Source: Escherichia phage Henu5_1. Taken from it: DNA of 44,212 nt. Positions 341 to 34,590 of this stretch are shown one piece after another; position 1 is the stretch's first letter; every line of letters starts with the position of its first letter. Both the position numbers and the translations under genes were made by a program. The notes beneath the pieces are model-generated. The model did not search any database and was not told the origin of the DNA. It saw only the letters and a program-made list of their open reading frames with translations. The stretch lies in the sequence record PQ133007. One strand, 5' to 3'.

Positions 341-2605
341 ATGAGCTTAATTAAATTCGCTGTAACACGACCCGCTAAAAAAGGCGAAAAAGCCAGGGCG
401 GAAAACTTCCAGATGACTACCGAAGAGTTTTTCGAATTTATCAATGACGCGAAAGAAATCTCCTCGGTGCATATCAACAAAACGGAAGATAAAGCCGAGT
501 ACGCCCGCCGCAAGCGTAAGGCCGATGGCATTGTGGCTTATACCAGTGATGGGCTGCGCCGCAAGACCAGTGCGGTGGACCGTTCGATCCTGTTCTTCGA
601 TATCGACCGTACCGACACCCGCACCCTACGCCGCTGCCGTAAGGCTTTCGTCGATGCGGGGCTGGAGCACGTATTCCATACAACAACCGGCGACCGCCAC
701 CCGCTGAAAGGCGGCACGCGTTGCGCACGTTTCCTTGTGCTCACGGACAAGCCTGTCTCGGCGGAAGACCTGGGCCGTGTCCAGTATGCGCTATTACACC
801 AACTGGGTCTGTCAGATGTGGACTTCGACGATTGCACGAAAGACACAAACCGCCTGATGTACCTGCCACACCAGCAGTCTGTTATTAAGTGCCACTATGG
901 CAAGCGCGCCCGCGTCCGTCGTCTGCTCCGCCTGGCGGATAAGCTGGGCGTGGAGAAAGAGGAAGTCCGCCGCGAGCTTACTCAGGGCGACGACGCAGTG
1001 GCAGACGGCATTCTGGACTGGTGCTTCCAGGCAGGATTCGAGGAGTTATCTTCCGGTCGCGGTTATGAAGTGCCGTGCCCGAACGAACATCTGCACAGCG
1101 GCGAAGGGTCGACGGCTATCATGGTCAAGGATGGCGAGATCCGTTTCAAGTGTATGCACACCGGTAACGAGTGTTGCTCGGAACTGAATAGACACCAGCA
1201 CCTGGCGCTACGTCTTATCGGGATCCCGGACCACCTGAACGTCGAGCCACACAATATGTCCCGTAAGCAAATCGCCGCCATCCTTCCGGGGCTGGACGAC
1301 GAGGAAGTCGAATCCTTATACGAACATATTGTTGATGCGGTTGGCGACGGCGAAGAATACGGCGTGTGCACCGATGCGGATCTGGATAACGAGCCGGTCG
1401 CGCTGTTCAGTAAGCACGACCCGATTATCGAGGGGTTGATTAACTTTAAATCGACCTGGTACATGGCGGGTGAGTCGAATATCGGTAAGTCTTTCTATGT
1501 GCTGGGCCAAATGGGCGCGGTTGCCGCAGGGATCCCGTTCGGCGGTGCGAAGGTCGTCCAGTCTCATTGCTTCTATTTCGACGCGGAAGGTGGTGAAGCC
1601 TCCAACCAGCGTAAGGAAGCATTGCAGATTAAATACGAGCACGACCTGGACAAGCTGCACATTATCGATCTGCAGTCACGCGGCTGGGATATCACCAGCA
1701 AGTCCGGCTTGCGTGAAGTTATCAGCTTTATCAACCGCACCGCTAACGGCGAACCGGTTGGCCTGGTGGCGTTCGACTCACTAAACCAGACTGTTGCGTT
1801 GCGGTCCGCTGATGCTAAACCGTTCGACGAGAACAACGCCAGCGATATGGGTGAAGTGGTCAAAGCGCTGAAGGCCATTGCGGAAAATACAGGAGGCAGT
1901 GCGGGCGTAATTCACCACCCGGCAAAAGGTGCAAACGGCAGCAGAACCCCACGCGGGTCCGGCGCGCTGCATGGTGCTGTCGATTCCGCTTTCTTCCTGG
2001 AACAGCCGGACGACAACCAGCCCGGACAATTGAACCTGTATCATGAGAAGTCCCGTAACGGCATCAAACAAGCGCCGCGCGGCTTCGTCCTGCTCAAGTG
2101 CAAGGTGAAGGTGGATCTCCGCAAGTCAGAAGCGTTCGCGTCGCACCAGTCCACCAGCACCGGGCCGGACTTCGGCGACGTTGTTGCCGGTTGGGACGTC
2201 AAACCAATTGCGTCCACGCCACGCGACGAGACTCTGTACCTCGTACCGGTCGCCCTGGCACCGTTCGCTATAGAACAGGCGAAGGCCGCGGGCAAAGCAG
2301 CAGTTAAGGAAGAGAACACCGCCGGTCCGCGCAACGAAAAAGAGAAAGTGCTTTATGCGGCCCTGGAAAAACTGATGGAAGATAACCCGAACCATACCGG
2401 CTTCAGTAAATCGGCAATTGTCCGCCAGGCTGGACTCGCGAAGGGTGGCACTTCGACGAAGGCAATCGACGATATGGTGGACCGCGGCGTGATTGGTTTC
2501 TATACAGATCCGCACACCGGGGCCATCTATGGGTCGTCGAATTTAGTCATCAAATCGGATATTCCCATAACGCTTTCGGCGACCGATGACGATCTAAAAG
2601 ATTAA
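341..2605 (+). CDS. DNA primase/helicase (primase-polymerase-like N-terminus plus RecA-like P-loop ATPase)
   Basis: 754 aa ORF; P-loop GESNIGKS in C-terminal half; size and layout typical of phage primase-helicase fusions. Confidence 0.65.
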   Translation: MSLIKFAVTRPAKKGEKARAENFQMTTEEFFEFINDAKEISSVHINKTEDKAEYARRKRKADGIVAYTSDGLRRKTSAVDRSILFFDIDRTDTRTLRRCRKAFVDAGLEHVFHTTTGDRHPLKGGTRCARFLVLTDKPVSAEDLGRVQYALLHQLGLSDVDFDDCTKDTNRLMYLPHQQSVIKCHYGKRARVRRLLRLADKLGVEKEEVRRELTQGDDAVADGILDWCFQAGFEELSSGRGYEVPCPNEHLHSGEGSTAIMVKDGEIRFKCMHTGNECCSELNRHQHLALRLIGIPDHLNVEPHNMSRKQIAAILPGLDDEEVESLYEHIVDAVGDGEEYGVCTDADLDNEPVALFSKHDPIIEGLINFKSTWYMAGESNIGKSFYVLGQMGAVAAGIPFGGAKVVQSHCFYFDAEGGEASNQRKEALQIKYEHDLDKLHIIDLQSRGWDITSKSGLREVISFINRTANGEPVGLVAFDSLNQTVALRSADAKPFDENNASDMGEVVKALKAIAENTGGSAGVIHHPAKGANGSRTPRGSGALHGAVDSAFFLEQPDDNQPGQLNLYHEKSRNGIKQAPRGFVLLKCKVKVDLRKSEAFASHQSTSTGPDFGDVVAGWDVKPIASTPRDETLYLVPVALAPFAIEQAKAAGKAAVKEENTAGPRNEKEKVLYAALEKLMEDNPNHTGFSKSAIVRQAGLAKGGTSTKAIDDMVDRGVIGFYTDPHTGAIYGSSNLVIKSDIPITLSATDDDLKD

Positions 2606-2664
2606 ATTTTGCGCGCATTGGTTGCCATTTTGTGTGCTTTTAGCTGGTCGCATTGGTTGCCGTG

Positions 2665-2870
2665 TAGTGTGAATATAATGCATAGTTATGCAATAAAACT
2701 GCATAAAGTAAGCGGGACAAAAAGCGGGACAAACCATGGGCGGGACAAAGCGGGACGGCACCCCTGTCCCGCCCGGATGACGCGGCCTGGCGAGGAGCGG
2801 GACAGGCGGGACAACTCCCAGTCTTTCAGACTAGACGGGGGTCAACGGCCCCCCTCGTCTGAGACTGCAT
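2665..2870. repeat. Iteron array: 7 copies of GCGGGACA/TGTCCCGC plus conserved hairpin (copy 1 of duplicated module)
   Basis: GCGGGACA at about 2712, 2724, 2740, 2750, 2797, 2806 and inverted TGTCCCGC at 2765; about 80 percent identical to 19495-19690. Confidence 0.7.
2819..2867. promoter_or_regulatory. Conserved 49-nt imperfect palindrome / stem-loop (copy 1)
   Basis: cagtct...agacggggg-loop-cccccctcgtct...agactg; outer and inner stems complementary; no adjacent T-run so not a canonical intrinsic terminator. Confidence 0.5.
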
Positions 2871-3026
2871 AAAATCCGGGATTGCAAAATACACGGCAGC
2901 ATGTCGCGGATTGCGGTCGTCGCTGAACTAGGCAACCAATGCGAGATGCAGAAAGCGGTGTGGAAAATGCAGTTTGCAGTTGCAACGGATAGCGATCGAC
3001 TTTTTCATGCGCATGATTAATATTGG

Positions 3027-3055
3027 TTGCATTCGTGCCAGCACCCTGCTAGATT
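3027..3055 (+). promoter_or_regulatory. Putative sigma70-like promoter (TTGCAT-17-TAGATT) overlapping two ATTGGTTGCA motifs
   Basis: -35 TTGCAT lies inside ATTGGTTGCAT; second motif copy overlaps -10/+1; about 25 nt upstream of GGAGG RBS of ORF 3083. Confidence 0.4.
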
Positions 3056-3082
3056 GGTTGCACACCAACAGGAGGGCGGAAC

Positions 3083-3262
3083 ATGAAAACCGAAATGGTT
3101 GATAAGCACGAAATCAAGATCGGCGATACGGTAGTCCACAACGGGGAGCTTCGCACTGTGTGCAGGCGAGCGTTTAGCATCGATGAATTTATGGGCCTGC
3201 TACTTTGGGGCGACAGCTATCGTTTAGGGCATAAACTGGTTGAGAGGGTTACGGAACTATGA
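3083..3262 (+). CDS. Small hypothetical protein (59 aa, below ORF-track threshold)
   Basis: ATG at 3083 preceded by GGAGG RBS; hand-translated MKTEMVDKHEIKIGDTVVHNGELRTV...; stop overlaps next start (ATGA at 3259). Confidence 0.5.
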   Translation: MKTEMVDKHEIKIGDTVVHNGELRTVCRRAFSIDEFMGLLLWGDSYRLGHKLVERVTEL

Positions 3263-3450
3263 AAGCAATTATCTGGAATTACGCAATGGCTATGGCGGAG
3301 ATCCAGCCGTTGGCGAACGCTATCCAGGACTACGCGCTTGCATTTGCCCGTGAACGCCTGGCGTATCGCTTCGGAATCGGCGAGACGGCAGTGACAAACG
3401 TTGCCCGGATTAAAGCCCAGCGTGAGCTATTCGCCCAGCTTGCGAAATAA
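3259..3450 (+). CDS. Hypothetical early protein
   Basis: 63 aa track ORF; start overlaps upstream stop (ATGA). Confidence 0.55.
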   Translation: MKAIIWNYAMAMAEIQPLANAIQDYALAFARERLAYRFGIGETAVTNVARIKAQRELFAQLAK

Positions 3451-3459
3451 GAGGCCAAA

Positions 3460-3729
3460 ATGACCCGTAGACGCGCAAAACAGCTTTCGTGGCATATCCC
3501 CCTGCATTGCATACGAATATGGGCTAAGAATGCGAATGCGGGGGACTCTGTGTACTGGTGCTATCGCGACGACGTTAAGCCGTTGACGCAGACTCGCTAC
3601 TTGCACCAGTTCGCCGCGCAACATGATTTCTATGTGCGGACCTCCTTGCAACCAATGGGGATCCGTATTACATTACGCCGGAAGCCCGCAGTCGAGCGGG
3701 TAGGCAAACACTGGAGACTGAGCAAATGA
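3460..3729 (+). CDS. Hypothetical early protein
   Basis: 89 aa track ORF; AAGAGG RBS upstream of ATG 3460. Confidence 0.6.
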   Translation: MTRRRAKQLSWHIPLHCIRIWAKNANAGDSVYWCYRDDVKPLTQTRYLHQFAAQHDFYVRTSLQPMGIRITLRRKPAVERVGKHWRLSK

Positions 3730-3869
3730 CACCAGCACTAATGGCGGGATTCTCGCAGAAGTTTATTTCTGTTGATGCCTGCATAGCAGATTATGAGATG
3801 GACGGCATCGCTACTGTGTGCGATGGCGACACGAAAACTGCCGACGAGATTGAGGAGACAGAACAATGA
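3726..3869 (+). CDS. Small hypothetical acidic protein (47 aa, below threshold)
   Basis: ATG 3726 overlaps upstream stop and its own stop overlaps ATG 3866 (ATGA at both ends); hand-translated MTPALMAGFSQKFISVDACIADYEMDG... Confidence 0.45.
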   Translation: MTPALMAGFSQKFISVDACIADYEMDGIATVCDGDTKTADEIEETEQ

Positions 3870-4483
3870 AATTACTATTCCGCCGCAAGCATGATGGTCG
3901 CATCCTGAAGCCGATCCAGACCCTGGATTCCTACGTCCGCTTACAAAACGCGGCAGGCAATCGGGTGTGGCGGGCGCCGAAACACACGCTGCCGCAGTTC
4001 TTCGACGTACTCACTCACGATATCGAGCGCGGCGATGTGCTGCGTGATATTCGCGACGGCAGTATGTGGGTCGTCGAGTATGTCGGGCTTCATGGCCTGC
4101 GTATGCAAAACCGCAAGGATGGCGTCGCCGGTATGACTTACTTCGGCCTCGTAAATTACGAGCGAGTGGGTCGCAAATACAGCCTTCGTGACCGCCAGCC
4201 GCACGAGCGCGCGAACGTCATAGCGGATGCCGTTAACCGCGTAACGCATGATGTGGCGCAAAAGACGCGTGTGGAGTTCCGCAAGTCACAGCCAGCCTAT
4301 GCAACCTACGACGCGAGCAAAGTGATGGATCCGATACGCCAGGCGACGCATGCGATTATTAATCGCTTTGATGCCGTGACGAATGCACAGCGCCATGCGC
4401 AGGAATACGGTTTTGGATTCATCCGGGTGGAACGAGACGGCAGCATGAAAGCCATCGACCCGCGCTCGGTGATTCTGAAATGA
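3866..4483 (+). CDS. Hypothetical protein
   Basis: 205 aa track ORF, translationally coupled to neighbours. Confidence 0.65.
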   Translation: MKLLFRRKHDGRILKPIQTLDSYVRLQNAAGNRVWRAPKHTLPQFFDVLTHDIERGDVLRDIRDGSMWVVEYVGLHGLRMQNRKDGVAGMTYFGLVNYERVGRKYSLRDRQPHERANVIADAVNRVTHDVAQKTRVEFRKSQPAYATYDASKVMDPIRQATHAIINRFDAVTNAQRHAQEYGFGFIRVERDGSMKAIDPRSVILK

Positions 4484-4626
4484 GTGCGACGATCCGTGAT
4501 ATGCTTCAGCACAACCGCTTTGAGATAGGCGGTCGGGTATTTCGCAATTACTTCGTGGCGCGTGCATGGGCGCGCCATATTGGCAAACCGGAAGGGGCAA
4601 TTCGATGCTATACGTCTTCGCGGTAG
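4480..4626 (+). CDS. Small hypothetical protein (48 aa, below threshold)
   Basis: ATG 4480 overlaps stop of upstream gene (ATGA); hand-translated MSATIRDMLQHNRFEIGGRVFRNYFVARAW... Confidence 0.45.
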   Translation: MSATIRDMLQHNRFEIGGRVFRNYFVARAWARHIGKPEGAIRCYTSSR

Positions 4627-4706
4627 TATGTGGCGGTAGTCTGGCGGCCCTGGTGCTGTTGGCGTCGGTTATTAGTCTGGTTAAATACCTATGGGGCAGA
4701 TTATGA
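4605..4706 (+). CDS. Putative 33-aa hydrophobic membrane peptide
   Basis: ATG 4605 preceded by GAAGGGG RBS; hand-translated MLYVFAVVCGGSLAALVLLASVISLVKYLWGRL; stop overlaps ATG 4703. Confidence 0.35.
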   Translation: MLYVFAVVCGGSLAALVLLASVISLVKYLWGRL

Positions 4707-4990
4707 TTCATGATGTGATTTATTGGTTTGGTTTGATCTGGGGACTGTGCCTGCTTACTGTGGTGCTGTTGTGCCTCCTGATGTTCGTCGTATGGCCCGC
4801 CGTGGAAGCCGCCAGCATTACCCGCATGACGTTCGAAATATACAAGCGCCGTGGAATCACGGAGCACCCGACCAGGTTGCGCATGTGGTGGCTGTGGTAT
4901 CGGGATATGATAGGCGGGCGAACATTCGAAGCCGTCCGATCATCCGGGTGGGAGTGGAAAGGCGTCGGCAAGTGGTCCGTTTTCGATTAA
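4703..4990 (+). CDS. Membrane protein (single predicted TM helix)
   Basis: Track ORF 4691-4990; ATG 4703 preferred because it overlaps upstream stop (ATGA); hydrophobic N-terminal segment. Confidence 0.5.
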   Translation: MIHDVIYWFGLIWGLCLLTVVLLCLLMFVVWPAVEAASITRMTFEIYKRRGITEHPTRLRMWWLWYRDMIGGRTFEAVRSSGWEWKGVGKWSVFD

Positions 4991-5008
4991 TTATGCAAGC
5001 GTGATATA

Positions 5009-5042
5009 GTCCCAGTGAGCTAAAACTTACTGGGACTTTTTT
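5009..5042 (+). terminator. Rho-independent terminator
   Basis: 9-bp stem AGTCCCAGT/ACTGGGACT followed by TTTTTT, directly after stop at 4990. Confidence 0.6.
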
Positions 5043-5333
5043 ATGGATAAGCTAAACGAGTGGCTATTCGCCCTGGCATGTCTGGCGGGTGGCTTCGTAG
5101 GCGCACGCATTCATGGTGAGGCTACGAAGGGGCCGCTAAACTTCGTTTTGTATGTGGTAGTCGGCTTCCTGTGTGCCATATTTGGCGCACCGGCTATTGC
5201 CGAGTGGGCTGGTTTGTCGGGTGAGCGCACTGTCGCCGGTTTGGGCTTCGTAACCGCAATCTTCTGGATGCCAATCGCCGACCGGATCAGGGAGACTATT
5301 GCGTCGTTCCGACTTCCGGGGGGTGCAAAATGA
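5043..5333 (+). CDS. Holin-like membrane protein
   Basis: 96 aa with 2-3 hydrophobic helices, immediately upstream of lysozyme gene. Confidence 0.5.
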   Translation: MDKLNEWLFALACLAGGFVGARIHGEATKGPLNFVLYVVVGFLCAIFGAPAIAEWAGLSGERTVAGLGFVTAIFWMPIADRIRETIASFRLPGGAK

Positions 5334-32916: not shown

Positions 32917-33373
32917 TGAATTTTGCAACGTTTATTGCGTAAATTTTCGGGACCAAATCACCACACGCCCGACGAATTGCCGCGATGTTCTTCTCGCAAT
33001 CTTCAATGATGACCAGTTCAGACACGTCCGCGTAGCAGACCATTTTGAACACGGCGCACGCCTTAAACTCTGGCGGCGGGGTGTCGTCCAGCATGTGGCG
33101 CATAAACAACCTGCCTACGGGGAAGACTTCCAGTTGTTCGGCGGTGGTGTCCCAACATTCACGCTGCCGGTTTGTCAGATACGCGATCTCGAAGCCTTGC
33201 TCTTTATACATGCGCAGTAGCGGCAGCATATCCATGTTCAGGTCTTCGCGGACGTGCGCCTTGTGCCACTTTGCCCAAAAGGTGGATTTCGTTTTTATCC
33301 CCGGCACCAGGTCGGCGCGCGCATCGCTTGATCCATTAATAACGCCATCCAGATCACAAATCAGTAATTTCAT
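32903..33373 (-). CDS. HAD-superfamily hydrolase-like protein
   Basis: N-terminal DLDGV (HAD motif I DxDG), downstream LTN (motif II); GAGGA RBS. Confidence 0.55.
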   Translation of the reverse strand: MKLLICDLDGVINGSSDARADLVPGIKTKSTFWAKWHKAHVREDLNMDMLPLLRMYKEQGFEIAYLTNRQRECWDTTAEQLEVFPVGRLFMRHMLDDTPPPEFKACAVFKMVCYADVSELVIIEDCEKNIAAIRRACGDLVPKIYAINVAKFTCNQ

Positions 33374-33594
33374 TTCAATTCCTCAATCAAATTTGCACGA
33401 ACACTACGGGCGGAAAACGTGTCACACACAAGATGACAGCGGGCAGTCATTACAAGCCAGCCAGTAAGGTCCATGCCCAGGAGGTGTTCCGGACGTGACA
33501 CACGACGCACTTTGTTCTCCCTCGGGTTGATTTGGTAGCGTTTAACAATTTCGTCCACGACGCGCATACTGCGGTCAACGATTAAGATATTCAC
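33370..33594 (-). CDS. Hypothetical protein
   Basis: 74 aa; GTG start with GGAGA RBS; overlaps both neighbours. Confidence 0.45.
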   Translation of the reverse strand: MNILIVDRSMRVVDEIVKRYQINPRENKVRRVSRPEHLLGMDLTGWLVMTARCHLVCDTFSARSVRANLIEELK

Positions 33595-34060
33595 GTAGTT
33601 CTCCTTCGCTCATTATTTCAATTTGTGCGCTGCCGATGGGCGGCGCTTCGTCAAAGACTATCAATTGCTGGCACTTGTTATTGCTCGGCCCGACTTCGCC
33701 GGTTACAGCATGTATAAATCGGATCCGCCAGTCCAGAAGAATTATCAGGTTTGCAGTCTTCCGGGCCAGCTTCGCCCACTTCGTCGACGTGTCCTGATTC
33801 AGTAGCATGACGGTCCGGCGTCCGTGCGCTGCGCACTCGACCCACGGCAGCGGATCGGAATACGGCGGGTTGCACCACTTCCACCCTTTCAACTCTGACC
33901 AGTCCACCTCAAGCGCGCTGTGCTCTGCCGTGAAGTAACGCGGTAGCAGATGGTTGGCGTCGCTTGCCGCCATATCGTAACGGAATCGGTACTTACGGCG
34001 CAGCGGTTTAAATAAAGCTGGCGGCGTGCGCCAGCTATCTTTTTGCTCACTCTTCTGCAT
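33575..34060 (-). CDS. DNA N6-adenine methyltransferase (phage Dam-type)
   Basis: 161 aa with NPPY catalytic motif (CNPPYS) and upstream DMAASD segment. Confidence 0.65.
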   Translation of the reverse strand: MQKSEQKDSWRTPPALFKPLRRKYRFRYDMAASDANHLLPRYFTAEHSALEVDWSELKGWKWCNPPYSDPLPWVECAAHGRRTVMLLNQDTSTKWAKLARKTANLIILLDWRIRFIHAVTGEVGPSNNKCQQLIVFDEAPPIGSAQIEIMSEGELREYLNR

Positions 34061-34511
34061 GATCTGGATCTATCGCGTACAGGGCGATTTTATTGCCGGT
34101 CTTGAGAATGCGTTGCACGCGCTTTGTCTCCTCGACACTAAGCGGGCGCGCGTCCGGGTAGAAGCTGCCGTTTGTAGGGTTGCGCCACGCCATGAGCACA
34201 AGGTCTTTCCGGGCGATCGAAGACTGGCGACCCTTCAGACGCGCGTGCTCCTCCGCACGTTTGCAATGCTCACGCAAACCATCGGCAGTGATGCGGTTTA
34301 GTGCAACGCTGGTGGTGTATCCGGTGCGCTGCATAATACCCATCAATTCGAAAAGCAGTTCGAAGCGCTCCTCTAACTCCTGGCGCACTTTCTTCTCCCC
34401 TTCATATAGCGACTGGTTGGCGGACGCCAACGCGTTCGCACGTTTGGCCTGATCGCGGGCTTCGAGGCATTGCGCGGCCCAGTAATTTTTCTCTTCTTGT
34501 AAAATTTTCAT
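34047..34511 (-). CDS. Hypothetical protein
   Basis: ATG 34511 with GGAGA RBS inside track ORF 34047-34559; charged helical sequence. Confidence 0.55.
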   Translation of the reverse strand: MKILQEEKNYWAAQCLEARDQAKRANALASANQSLYEGEKKVRQELEERFELLFELMGIMQRTGYTTSVALNRITADGLREHCKRAEEHARLKGRQSSIARKDLVLMAWRNPTNGSFYPDARPLSVEETKRVQRILKTGNKIALYAIDPDHAEE

Positions 34512-34586: not shown

Positions 34587-34590
34587 CCAA

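Follow-up and report, generated by a model that had tools for sequence, protein, structure and literature searches.

Overlapping stop and start codons of the AUGA or UAAUG type are a textbook trait of translationally coupled operons in bacteria and phages. In the Dhillonviruses, a cluster of small genes is located between the helicase-primase gene and the holin genes, as in HK578 (gp48-gp54), SSL-2009a (orf54-orf60), SM_S22 (CDS0057-0064), TheodorHerzl (gp53-gp59) and Sodalis phage SO-1 (gp49-gp53). All eight genes considered here are annotated as hypothetical proteins in the GenBank records of SM_S22, Zumzum, TheodorHerzl and RuthEpting. The relatives differ among themselves in which of the small ORFs their annotations call: several are omitted in PC2, EP23 and jat and included in the SM_S22 and BASEL records. 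In a preprint, HK578 gp45-gp46, upstream of the cluster, were described as an operon that has a promoter of its own.

Runs of co-oriented small hypothetical genes that include a homologue of the first gene of the chain (O1) are also found in the T1-like Drexlerviridae (pSf-1 gp33-gp41 and phiD2-2 GP08-GP18). The corresponding 61-aa proteins, pSf-1 gp37 and phiD2-2 GP15, share about 66% amino acid identity with O1. However, O1 alone is common to both groups; its neighbours there are unrelated, and the junctions are mostly short gaps instead of ATGA overlaps.

The DNA stretch of 44,212 nt analyzed in this study (the window) shows a DNA identity of 89-96% to SSL-2009a, JL1, HK578 and SM_S22, and the phage is a virulent E. 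coli siphophage of the Dhillonvirus type. EE09 has been reported to carry the cohesive-end sequence ATCTTAAGGG, of which the window contains no copy. The eight ORFs of the cluster, O1 to O8, lie between the replicative helicase-primase gene and a holin/holin/endolysin cassette, on the same strand as both (Table 1). For the conservation and selection counts, 28 related loci were used as the comparison set.

The order helicase-primase, cluster, holin is the same as in the Dhillonvirus relatives, as are the junction types, and alignments of the 28 loci showed that the promoter and terminator sequences are common to the window and these phages. Two differences were found. O1, O4 and O7 are all present in the window, whereas many relatives are without them, and an in-frame deletion of 45 codons in O2 occurs in the window only. 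The genes O1 to O8 are already known as hypothetical proteins from more than 100 related phage genomes, and the cluster is a real, tightly packed operon, an ordinary and already known feature.

Table 1. Positions and properties of the promoter, the eight genes and the terminator in the window.
Feature	Position	Strand	Description
Promoter	3021..3062	+	−35 TTGCAT (3028-3033), 17-nt spacer, −10 TAGATT (3051-3056); read from sequence and conservation
O1	3083..3262	+	59 aa; phrog_3623, E 2e-30
O2	3259..3450	+	63 aa; phrog_9839, profile positions 50-101 of 101
O3	3460..3729	+	89 aa, pI 11; 9-nt spacer with AAGAGG upstream; core gene, 28/28 loci
O4	3726..3869	+	47 aa; ATGA overlap at both ends; phrog_15977, E 7e-34
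O5	3866..4483	+	205 aa, pI 10.2; core gene
O6	4480..4626	+	48 aa, pI 11.2; phrog_13628, E 1e-37
O7	4605..4706	+	33 aa; single hydrophobic helix, then KYLWGRL; on 98-nt indel module
O8	4703..4990	+	95 aa; phrog_2531, E 8e-37; core gene
Intrinsic terminator	5008..5042	+	12-bp stem (5008-5019 / 5026-5037), then TTTTTT; terminator scan and inverted-repeat finder

Gene junctions and ribosome binding sites

All eight ORFs listed in the earlier note are present, each with an ATG start. The note had also described every start codon as overlapping with the stop codon before it in the form ATGA. This applies to five of the seven junctions (O1/O2, O3/O4, O4/O5, O5/O6 and O7/O8) and not to the remaining two: the O2/O3 junction is a 9-nt gap (TAAgaggccaaaATG) with a Shine-Dalgarno (SD) site, and O6 and O7 overlap out of frame by 22 nt. 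The chain is similar to the textbook coupled operons in its 4-nt ATGA overlaps and in the weak SD of O6 (−3.0 kcal/mol). It differs from them in the two junctions of other geometry, and we infer its coupling from the geometry alone.

On the plus strand of the region, 99.5% of the sequence lies within ATG-initiated ORFs of 30 codons or more, compared to 58 ± 12% (maximum 91%) in 1000 dinucleotide shuffles. A mechanical count of ATGA-coupled pairs gave 6, with a shuffle mean of 0.34 and a maximum of 4; these 6 pairs comprise the five real ones and one alternative-frame artefact at 4133. The arrangement of O1 to O8 is far from chance. In the SM_S22 annotation, an ATGA overlap is found at 13 of 65 same-strand junctions. 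Compared to this, the chain is enriched in ATGA (Fisher p about 0.03), but it is not exceptional.

Among the relatives, the ATGA overlap is conserved at O5/O6 in 27 of 28 loci and at O7/O8 in 15 of 15. Where O4 is missing, the resulting O3/O5 junction is itself of the ATGA type in six of the eight loci. In these alignments, the junction types are kept even through gene gain or loss.

An SD pairing energy of −5.8 kcal/mol or stronger was found for five of the eight starts, compared to a background of 9% of ATGs reaching −6. The strongest SD of the chain is that of O1 (AGGAGG, −10.8 kcal/mol). The start codons previously chosen for O7 and O8 are supported by the pairing energies, which were −7.1 kcal/mol for the O7 start at 4605 (−1.5 at 4566) and −4.7 kcal/mol for the O8 start at 4703 (−2.2 at 4691). 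The latter is also favoured by the alignment with relatives. An antisense ORF of 193 codons (4286-4867, minus strand) was rejected as a gene, since the selection signal lies in the plus strand frames.

Promoter, terminator and proposed expression of the operon

The predicted promoter is located about 20 nt upstream of O1, and both of its hexamers lie within direct copies of ATTGGTTGCA (3021-3030 and 3052-3061). Across the 28 related loci, little or no variation is seen in the hexamers and the motif, and the spacer sequence is variable. TTGGTTGC occurs 20 times in the window, compared to 2.1 expected occurrences. The same promoter together with its leader is found again at about 13819 on the minus strand, within the head-gene region. 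A generic promoter scan of the window did not list the promoter at 3021-3062. The proposed position of the chain downstream of a motif-bearing promoter agrees with these data, as O1 to O8 are co-oriented and closely packed into a single unit downstream of a conserved, predicted sigma-70-like promoter carrying TTGGTTGC.

At the other end of the unit, the T-run of the terminator is directly followed by the holin ATG at 5043. The wider 45-nt stretch around the terminator (5001-5045) has a minimum free energy of −21.5 kcal/mol. The terminator is kept in 28 of 28 loci, one of which (L025) carries a compensatory C:G insertion, and it is annotated in the record of phage PTXU06. The sole Rfam return, NsiR1, was rejected, as this match is sub-threshold and coincides with the terminator hairpin.

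The late operon of phage lambda has the layout pR' - tR' - S R Rz. As in lambda, a strong intrinsic terminator is located directly upstream of the holin and endolysin genes, and in the window the packaging and structural genes come next, on the same strand. In lambda, however, a short leader lies between promoter and terminator, whereas here eight protein genes are found between them, and the likeness is an analogy only. A Q-like antiterminator was not detected using PHROG and Pfam profiles.

O1 to O8 very probably constitute one polycistronic operon, which would be transcribed by the host, translationally coupled, insulated by the terminator and used as a host-interaction or accessory module. 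Host RNA polymerase would start at the promoter upstream of O1 and would probably also reach the unit by reading through from the helicase-primase operon, because the terminator scan found no terminator-like site on the plus strand between 2606 and 3082. Ribosomes terminating at each UGA would re-initiate at the overlapping AUG, and this would matter most for O6 because of its weak own SD. Expression would take place with or soon after that of the replication genes, and the terminator would insulate the unit from the lysis and structural genes. The set is taken as a putative host-interaction or accessory module; no homology in favour of this label was found in the Pfam, NCBIfam and PADLOC scans.

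'Early' expression can reasonably be assumed from the host-type promoter, the co-orientation with the helicase-primase operon, from which no terminator-like site separates the unit, and the strong terminator before the lysis genes. A transcriptome or ribosome profiling data set of any Dhillonvirus was not found in the literature. The only Dhillonvirus infection proteome, that of EE09 at 25 min, comprises 4 phage proteins, none of which is indicated as a member of the cluster, and its depth is too low to inform on the translation of these genes.

Alternatively, the cluster, or at least O7 and O8, could belong with the lysis cassette and be expressed as middle or late genes, tuning holin timing or superinfection exclusion. 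O7 and O8 are predicted single-pass membrane proteins encoded immediately upstream of two holin genes. In addition, only 52 nt lie between the O8 stop and the holin ATG, and since this gap is mostly hairpin, transcription of the holin depends on read-through or on the conserved TGATATAGT element (5002-5010). However, it is the strong, conserved terminator that separates O8 from the holin, and O8 has neither a lipobox nor spanin-like features in its sequence nor a PHROG match of the lysis category. Moreover, a spanin is annotated elsewhere in SM_S22. An assignment to the lysis cassette is considered unlikely, and the early, terminator-insulated operon is the preferred reading.

Coding status of the small ORFs and the O7 module

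Seven of the eight proteins belong to PHROG families, all of unknown function, which is consistent with the earlier description of the proteins as uncharacterised. The families are 3623, 9839, 12533, 15977, 10243, 13628 and 2531 for O1 to O6 and O8, respectively, with E-values of 2e-30 to 5e-102. Scans of all eight proteins against Pfam, NCBIfam and PADLOC returned nothing above threshold.

Frame-specific purifying selection was detected for O2 to O6 and O8, with pN/pS values of 0.14-0.38 compared to values above 1 in the shifted frames. The lowest value was obtained for O6 (0.14 vs. 1.3-2.0 in the shifted frames), which is a core gene (28/28 loci) and encodes the most conserved protein of the chain. 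For O8, O4 and O2 the values were 0.27 (vs. 1.2-1.7), 0.29 (vs. 1.2-1.3) and 0.36 (vs. 1.4-1.8), respectively. A pN/pS of 0.36 was also found for O1, based on few sequences. The conserved core consists of O3, O5, O6, O8 and the C-terminal half of O2; O1 (8/28 loci), O4 (20/28) and O7 (15/28) are swappable accessories.

The ORFs below the size cutoff of the ORF list had been proposed as genes, and this was confirmed by the cross-family conservation of O1 and the frame-specific purifying selection on O4 and O6, for which a non-gene explanation is rejected. The coding status of O7 is probable only. With this grading, the hand-found ORFs of 33 to 59 codons are confirmed as real genes, and automated pipelines call them inconsistently.

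The 98-nt module carrying O7 is found in 15 of the 28 loci, and the intact 33-codon ORF in 14. O7 was detected by tblastn in 38 phage records with 97-100% amino acid identity. It begins at the ATG and the SD which are used by O8 in phages without O7. Conceivably, O7 is a micro-gene for a membrane protein which arrived with a 98-nt insertion and captured the ribosome binding site of O8, the terminal ATGA having re-coupled O8.

A different explanation is that O7 does not function as a gene, which might also apply to other sub-threshold ORFs. In this case, the module would be a neutral insertion just after the O8 start codon, in which O7 is read only via the inherited O8 initiation site and the ATGA returns ribosomes to O8. 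This would account for the absence of O7 from about 75% of the Dhillonvirus records and of the module, which is dispensable, from 13 of the 28 loci. It would likewise fit the lack of a PHROG profile match for O7 and the ZCEC12 recombinant, in which the module carries a truncated O7 ORF of 23 codons and O8 is still intact. The pN/pS of O7 is about 0.4, and the +1 frame scores alike, so that the frames are not separated by this value. On the other hand, the exact 33 codons with start, SD and terminal ATGA are maintained in 14 of the 15 module-bearing loci. Furthermore, two diverged copies with 70% amino acid identity differ only by conservative changes (V/I, F/L, V/M, S/G and R/K), next to about 9 synonymous ones, and the transmembrane helix and the KYLW(x)(R/K)L tail are preserved. 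A neutral insertion is thus possible but doubtful, and O7 is regarded as a probable coding gene on the basis of these comparisons.

The apparent 'hybrid' in ZCEC12 is better read as a recombinant of alleles with and without O7. An origin of O7 as a duplicate of the 5′ end of O8 was rejected, the DNA similarity score being 4 compared to 2.4 ± 1.6 in shuffles.

Properties and possible roles of the proteins

O1 is a near-neutral small protein and O4 an acidic peptide (pI 4.1, 11 D+E). For O8, an N-terminal transmembrane segment (about residues 6-32, hydropathy maximum 2.93) is predicted, followed by a basic, Trp-rich domain of ~60 aa. According to the positive-inside rule, O7 and O8 would be oriented N-out/C-in. 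O2, O3, O5 and O6 are basic (pI 9.7-11.2) and probably bind nucleic acids or proteins.

O2 is a derivative of a 96-108 aa protein, and an alignment with 27 relatives showed that the in-frame deletion is present in the window alone. The conserved C-terminal region contains an HTH-like stretch (RERLAYRFGIGETAVTNV). With its unique deletion, O2 of the window may be impaired. Matches of O2 to HTH_Tnp_4 (Pfam, E 0.04) and to methylmalonyl-CoA mutase were far below the cut-offs and were rejected. The structure model of O3 shows an alpha/beta sandwich, which is a generic fold.

The basic core proteins O2, O3, O5 and O6 could also be accessories of replication, recombination or transcription control that act on the phage DNA itself, for example on the adjacent iteron region. 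Immediately upstream of the operon are the helicase-primase gene and a non-coding region of 477 nt, in which GCGGGACA is repeated 6 times and a hairpin of −26 kcal/mol is found. The high pI values and the HTH-like stretch of O2 are compatible with this role, and the core genes are present in every relative, unlike typical anti-defence accessories. However, no DNA-binding domain was found at any curated threshold, the fold matches are generic, and the mutations by which HK578 escapes OLD are located in gp43, gp46 and the gp45 promoter, outside the cluster. A role on the phage DNA is rather unlikely compared to the preferred host-interaction or accessory module.

O5 is 100% identical to SSL-2009a gp58. 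In its structure model, two small N-terminal beta-barrels (residues 1-103) are followed by a helical hairpin, whose length varies, and by a beta-hairpin conserved at the C-terminus. The barrels are predicted to be of the tandem Tudor/SH3-like type, a generic fold modelled with moderate confidence. They were compared with RNA polymerase-interacting domains of this type, namely the C-terminal domain of UvrD/PcrA, the RID of CarD/Mfd and the KOW domain of NusG. The sequences show no similarity to O5 (6-17% identity), and no Pfam match links O5 to a Tudor-like RNA polymerase-interacting family. As a ubiquitous fold, it also matches ribosomal, PsaE, FeoA and SMN entries with scores equal to those of the RNA polymerase-interacting domains. 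A profile search of 1.84 billion representatives returned 23 clusters, all of the Dhillonvirus type, and one plant B3-repeat protein, which was rejected as spurious.

It is conceivable, but highly improbable, that the operon serves early host takeover and at the same time contains a gate between early and late expression. O5 would dock on RNA polymerase, with its tandem Tudor-like barrels binding as the UvrD/PcrA/CarD domains do, and O3 or O6 would allow passage of the terminator. If this were true, the lysis and structural genes would be switched on as by lambda Q, by unrelated proteins. Control of the host RNA polymerase or of the early/late switch by the operon would fill a gap in the transcription programme of the genus.

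The result is a clean operon map (promoter, eight genes and terminator) for a cluster that is carried by every Dhillonvirus. As it stands, its significance is small. The Dhillonviruses SECphi18, HK578 and Bas14-18 are now standard test phages in work on defence systems, which makes a defined, small and partly variable operon of this kind worth targeting in deletion and toxicity screens.

In the earlier note, anti-defence or host-takeover functions had been suggested for the small proteins. This is a tentative possibility at best. The genes are of small size and restricted to the lineage, and they vary in part: O1, O4 and O7 are accessories, and O2 and O5 contain indel hot spots. A host-type promoter lies upstream. 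O4 is strongly acidic, the modelled O5 barrels resemble RNA polymerase-binding Tudor domains, and a weak BFVD match to a 'host shutoff protein' of a Bacillus phage was obtained, with a TM-score of only 0.26. However, there is no sequence or confident structural link to known anti-defence or shut-off proteins. No homology to a validated anti-defence protein was found in PHROG, Pfam and NCBIfam, a search scope without a dedicated anti-defence HMM library. The uneven distribution of the accessories among the 28 loci is a trait that is not specific to anti-defence genes.

In the publications consulted, neither the anti-defence gene nor any of the defence triggers or escape loci described for Dhillonviruses is located within the cluster. 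These are anti-Tmn, nmad5, Ksap1, portal, SSB, DNA polymerase, helicase-primase, gp43 and the gp45 promoter, and the determinants for RAZR, Retron-Eco8, Borvo and OLD likewise all map outside the chain. The counterparts of anti-Tmn and Ksap1, both experimentally defined defence-interaction genes of Dhillonviruses, are located outside the chain on the minus strand of the window, at about 34050-34511 and about 33373-33558, respectively.

Organization of the small-gene chain

Using megablast, positions 2600-5100 were found to match 158 GenBank phage records, nearly all of Escherichia or Shigella Dhillonvirus, with a DNA identity of 96.5% for SSL-2009a, 94% for JL1 and about 89% for SM_S22, HK578, TheodorHerzl and others. 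The ORF map and the full SM_S22 annotation revealed the usual Dhillonvirus layout in the window. The rightward arm comprises a small HTH-like gene, helicase-primase, the small-gene cluster, holin/holin/endolysin, exonuclease, terminase and the genes for head and tail, and the leftward arm carries replication and DNA-metabolism genes. The chain of eight small genes (O1 to O8) is flanked by the helicase-primase and the first holin gene. It is real and well defined: eight genes between a single promoter and a single terminator, linked mostly by ATGA junctions. As a phage operon of small genes it is ordinary, and more than 100 public genomes already contain it in annotated form.

Positions and properties of the chain and of other features in the window (pN/pS in the proposed frame; orthologues among 28 related loci)
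Feature	Position (strand)	aa	pI	Anti-SD pairing (kcal/mol)	Loci	pN/pS
Helicase-primase	341-2605
GCGGGACA cluster, 6 copies	2712-2813
Hairpin	2819-2867
Promoter	3021-3062
O1	3083-3262(+)	59	near-neutral	-10.8	8	0.36
O2	3259-3450(+)	63	9.7	-6.3	28	0.36 (C-terminal part)
O3	3460-3729(+)	89	11.0	-5.8	28	0.21
O4	3726-3869(+)	47	4.1	-6.4	20	0.29
O5	3866-4483(+)	205	10.2	-9.3	28	0.38
O6	4480-4626(+)	48	11.2	-3.0	28	0.14
O7	4605-4706(+)	33		-7.1	15	~0.4
O8	4703-4990(+)	95		-4.7	28	0.27
Antisense ORF	4286-4867(-)	193
TGATATAGT	5002-5010
Terminator	5008-5042
First holin	5043-5333
GCGGGACA cluster, 7 copies	19375-19632
Gene at Ksap1 position	33373-33558(-)
SM_S22 CDS0035 homologue	34050-34511(-)
TTGGTTGC copies (partial list)	2618, 2653, 2932(-), 3023, 3054, 13785/13799(-), 32894(-)/32906, 34566/34583(-), 41091/41107, 44016

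All eight ORFs described in an earlier note were found at the stated positions, each with an ATG start. The accompanying statement that each start overlaps the preceding stop as ATGA holds for five junctions (3259, 3726, 3866, 4480 and 4703) and is wrong for two of the seven, since O2/O3 is a spacer (TAA, 9 nt, ATG, with AAGAGG inside it) and O6/O7 is a 22-nt overlap. With these two corrected, the structural observation is essentially right.

The packing of the chain is non-random. Compared to 1000 dinucleotide shuffles, the + strand coverage by ORFs with an ATG start and at least 30 codons was 99.5% versus 58 ± 12% (maximum 91%). ATGA-coupled pairs numbered 6 versus a shuffle mean of 0.34 (maximum 4), whereby this mechanical count includes one alternative-frame artefact at 4133. 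ATGA overlaps are common across the genus: of the 65 same-strand junctions annotated in SM_S22, 13 overlap by 4 nt, and 4 of these 13 belong to the orthologous chain (Fisher p 0.025). The mean anti-SD pairing over all 675 + strand ATGs was -2.3 kcal/mol, and the alternative starts at 4566 and 4691 pair more weakly (-1.5 and -2.2 kcal/mol) than the chosen ones.

Among the related loci, ATGA was identified at O5/O6 in 27 of 28, at O7/O8 in 15 of 15, at O4/O5 in 17 of 20 and at O3/O4 in 15 of 20, and the 9-nt O2/O3 spacer is retained in 26 of 28. Where O4 is missing, the O3/O5 junction is itself ATGA in 6 of 8 loci. Since the junction types are kept despite gene gain and loss, overlap-bounded cassettes are the units of gene exchange.

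Coding evidence and the O7 insertion

Seven of the eight proteins match PHROG families, every one of unknown function, and no PHROG family was matched by O7. Each of the eight appears as a hypothetical protein in the annotation of at least some relatives (SM_S22, Zumzum, TheodorHerzl, RuthEpting), and several of the small ORFs are omitted by earlier or more cautious annotations (PC2, EP23, jat, slur05).

Orthologues in the 28 related loci were placed by tblastn. In the codon alignments of O2 to O6 and O8, the two shifted frames gave pN/pS values of 1.1-2.1, and third codon positions hold most of the variable sites. Judged by these alignments, the six genes are under frame-specific purifying selection. 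For O1, the shifted frames gave 0.56-0.61, and the variation within the genus is too low for a test; homologues of 61 aa with about 66% amino acid identity are found in T1-like Drexlerviridae, likewise set in runs of small genes. The GTG-started ORF antisense to O5-O8 is almost certainly spurious in view of the selection signal in the + strand frames.

Where O7 is lacking, O8 begins ...GGAAGGGGCAATTCG-ATG-CTA-CAC-GAT..., and its overlap with O6 is 16 nt. Phages carrying O7 have a segment of 98 nt after the same ATG-CTA, resulting in the 33-codon ORF, whose final four bases, ATGA, restart O8 as M-I-H-D. Translation of O7 is very likely, since its start uses the site which elsewhere serves as the O8 ribosome-binding site. 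By tblastn, O7 was found in 38 phage records with 97-100% identity. Two diverged O7 copies, from RuthEpting and JohannBuxtorf (70% amino acid identity), differ by about 9 synonymous and about 11 non-synonymous changes, the latter all conservative (V/I, F/L, V/M, S/G, R/K); the pN/pS obtained from this pair has a binomial p of ~0.02-0.03, and the +1 frame scores alike. O7 is thus read as a genuine membrane peptide of 33 aa, albeit dispensable, which is probable, not proven. An origin of O7 by duplication of the O8 5' end was rejected, because the DNA of the two shows no similarity. The version in ZCEC12 (L015, 2127-2275) is broken, a recombinant that fuses the 3' end of the O7 module to an additional copy of an O8 5' end, a truncated ORF of 23 codons.

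Protein properties and known defence determinants

No Pfam, NCBIfam or PADLOC family was found at threshold for O1 to O8. O2 contains an HTH-like stretch and, compared to 27 of 27 relatives, has lost 45 internal codons in frame between MAMA and EIQPL; in the relatives, the O2 protein measures 96-108 aa or is part of a longer fusion. Both O7 and O8 contain one strongly hydrophobic segment followed by basic residues, which suggests an N-out/C-in topology according to the positive-inside rule.

The 430 O5 homologues all come from contigs of ~44 kb or from pieces of such contigs, and none has a Pfam domain. A profile search of 1.84 billion representatives yielded only 23 clusters; the sole outlier, a plant B3-repeat protein, is spurious. 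The AlphaFold2 model of O5 (mean pLDDT 68) predicts two small beta-barrels in residues 1-103 (pLDDT ~80), and then a helical hairpin that varies in length and is modelled with low confidence; a BFVD search returned orthologues and low-TM matches only. The O3 model (pLDDT 80) is a small alpha/beta sandwich with generic matches.

The label "host-takeover or anti-defence" given to the chain in the earlier note reflects a prior expectation rather than a result. Phage SMS22 encodes its anti-Tmn protein as ORF35 (PMC11846954); if this is GenBank CDS0035, as presumed, its homologue in the window is the gene with 79% identity to SM_S22 CDS0035. [quoted passage not shown] The RAZR trigger is the portal protein, escape mutations for Retron-Eco8 and Borvo map to SSB and DNA polymerase, and those for OLD to gp43, the helicase-primase and the gp45 promoter (preprint). 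None of these determinants falls within the chain. Testable leads added here are the Tudor-like barrels predicted for O5, the capture of the O8 start by the O7 insertion and the terminator that directly adjoins the start of the holin gene.

Transcription signals around the chain

Upstream of O1, the sequence ATATTGGTTGCAT-N17-TAGATTGGTTGCACACCAACAGGAGGGCGGAACATG was identified. TTGCAT and TA(G/T)ATT, 17 nt apart, are (nearly) invariant in all 28 loci and the spacer varies freely, as would be expected for a functional sigma-70 promoter. The two hexamers lie within copies of TTGGTTGC, a motif found 20 times in the window (2.1 expected) and often paired. Near-identical promoter and leader units (TTGCAT-N17-TAnATTGGTTGCACACCAACA-GAGG-ATG) are located at 3027(+) and ~13819(-), so TTGGTTGC seems to mark a promoter class, not a position. 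The ~13819(-) unit precedes, and would drive, an antisense gene within the head module. At 34590(-), TTGGTTGC again frames a TTGCAT-17-TATATT promoter.

The first gene after the chain promoter varies among relatives, being O1, another small ORF or full-length O2, a sign that this position is a recombination hot spot. A further sign is the fusion of the O2 homologue to a 58-aa N-terminal extension (MKFPVTIKDGKST...), giving 159 aa, in jat (L014) and JohannBuxtorf (L024), both at 587-1066.

The terminator consists of a 12-bp hairpin followed by T6, 18 nt after the chain end; the hairpin is kept in all 28 loci, with one compensatory C:G insertion. Immediately upstream of the hairpin lies TGATATAGT, conserved and similar to an extended -10 element, and the holin ATG directly follows the T-run. 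Because hairpin and T-run abut this ATG, transcription of the lysis genes would need terminator read-through or a start inside the hairpin, and 5002-5045 may act as an early/late gate.

On the + strand, no terminator-like site was found between the helicase-primase stop and O1, and read-through from the upstream operon is therefore likely; in HK578 this operon (gp45-gp46) has its own promoter, according to a preprint. The signals would fit a chain expressed together with, or shortly after, the replication genes and insulated from the lysis genes, making the "early" label plausible. Transcriptome, ribosome-profiling or informative proteome data were not found in the literature.

The 8-mer GCGGGACA was found 15 times in the window (2.2 expected). 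Its six-copy cluster sits in the 477-nt non-coding gap between helicase-primase and chain, pointing to an origin or iteron region; the seven-copy cluster lies just upstream of the tape-measure gene. ORFs annotated over these repeats in some relatives (e.g., SM_S22 CDS0055) are probably spurious. The stretch from the putative iterons to the chain promoter contains a strong hairpin without a following T-run (-26.2 kcal/mol, z -3.7), which is flanked by CGCATTGGTTGCC, direct at 2614 and 2649 and inverted at 2931-2943.
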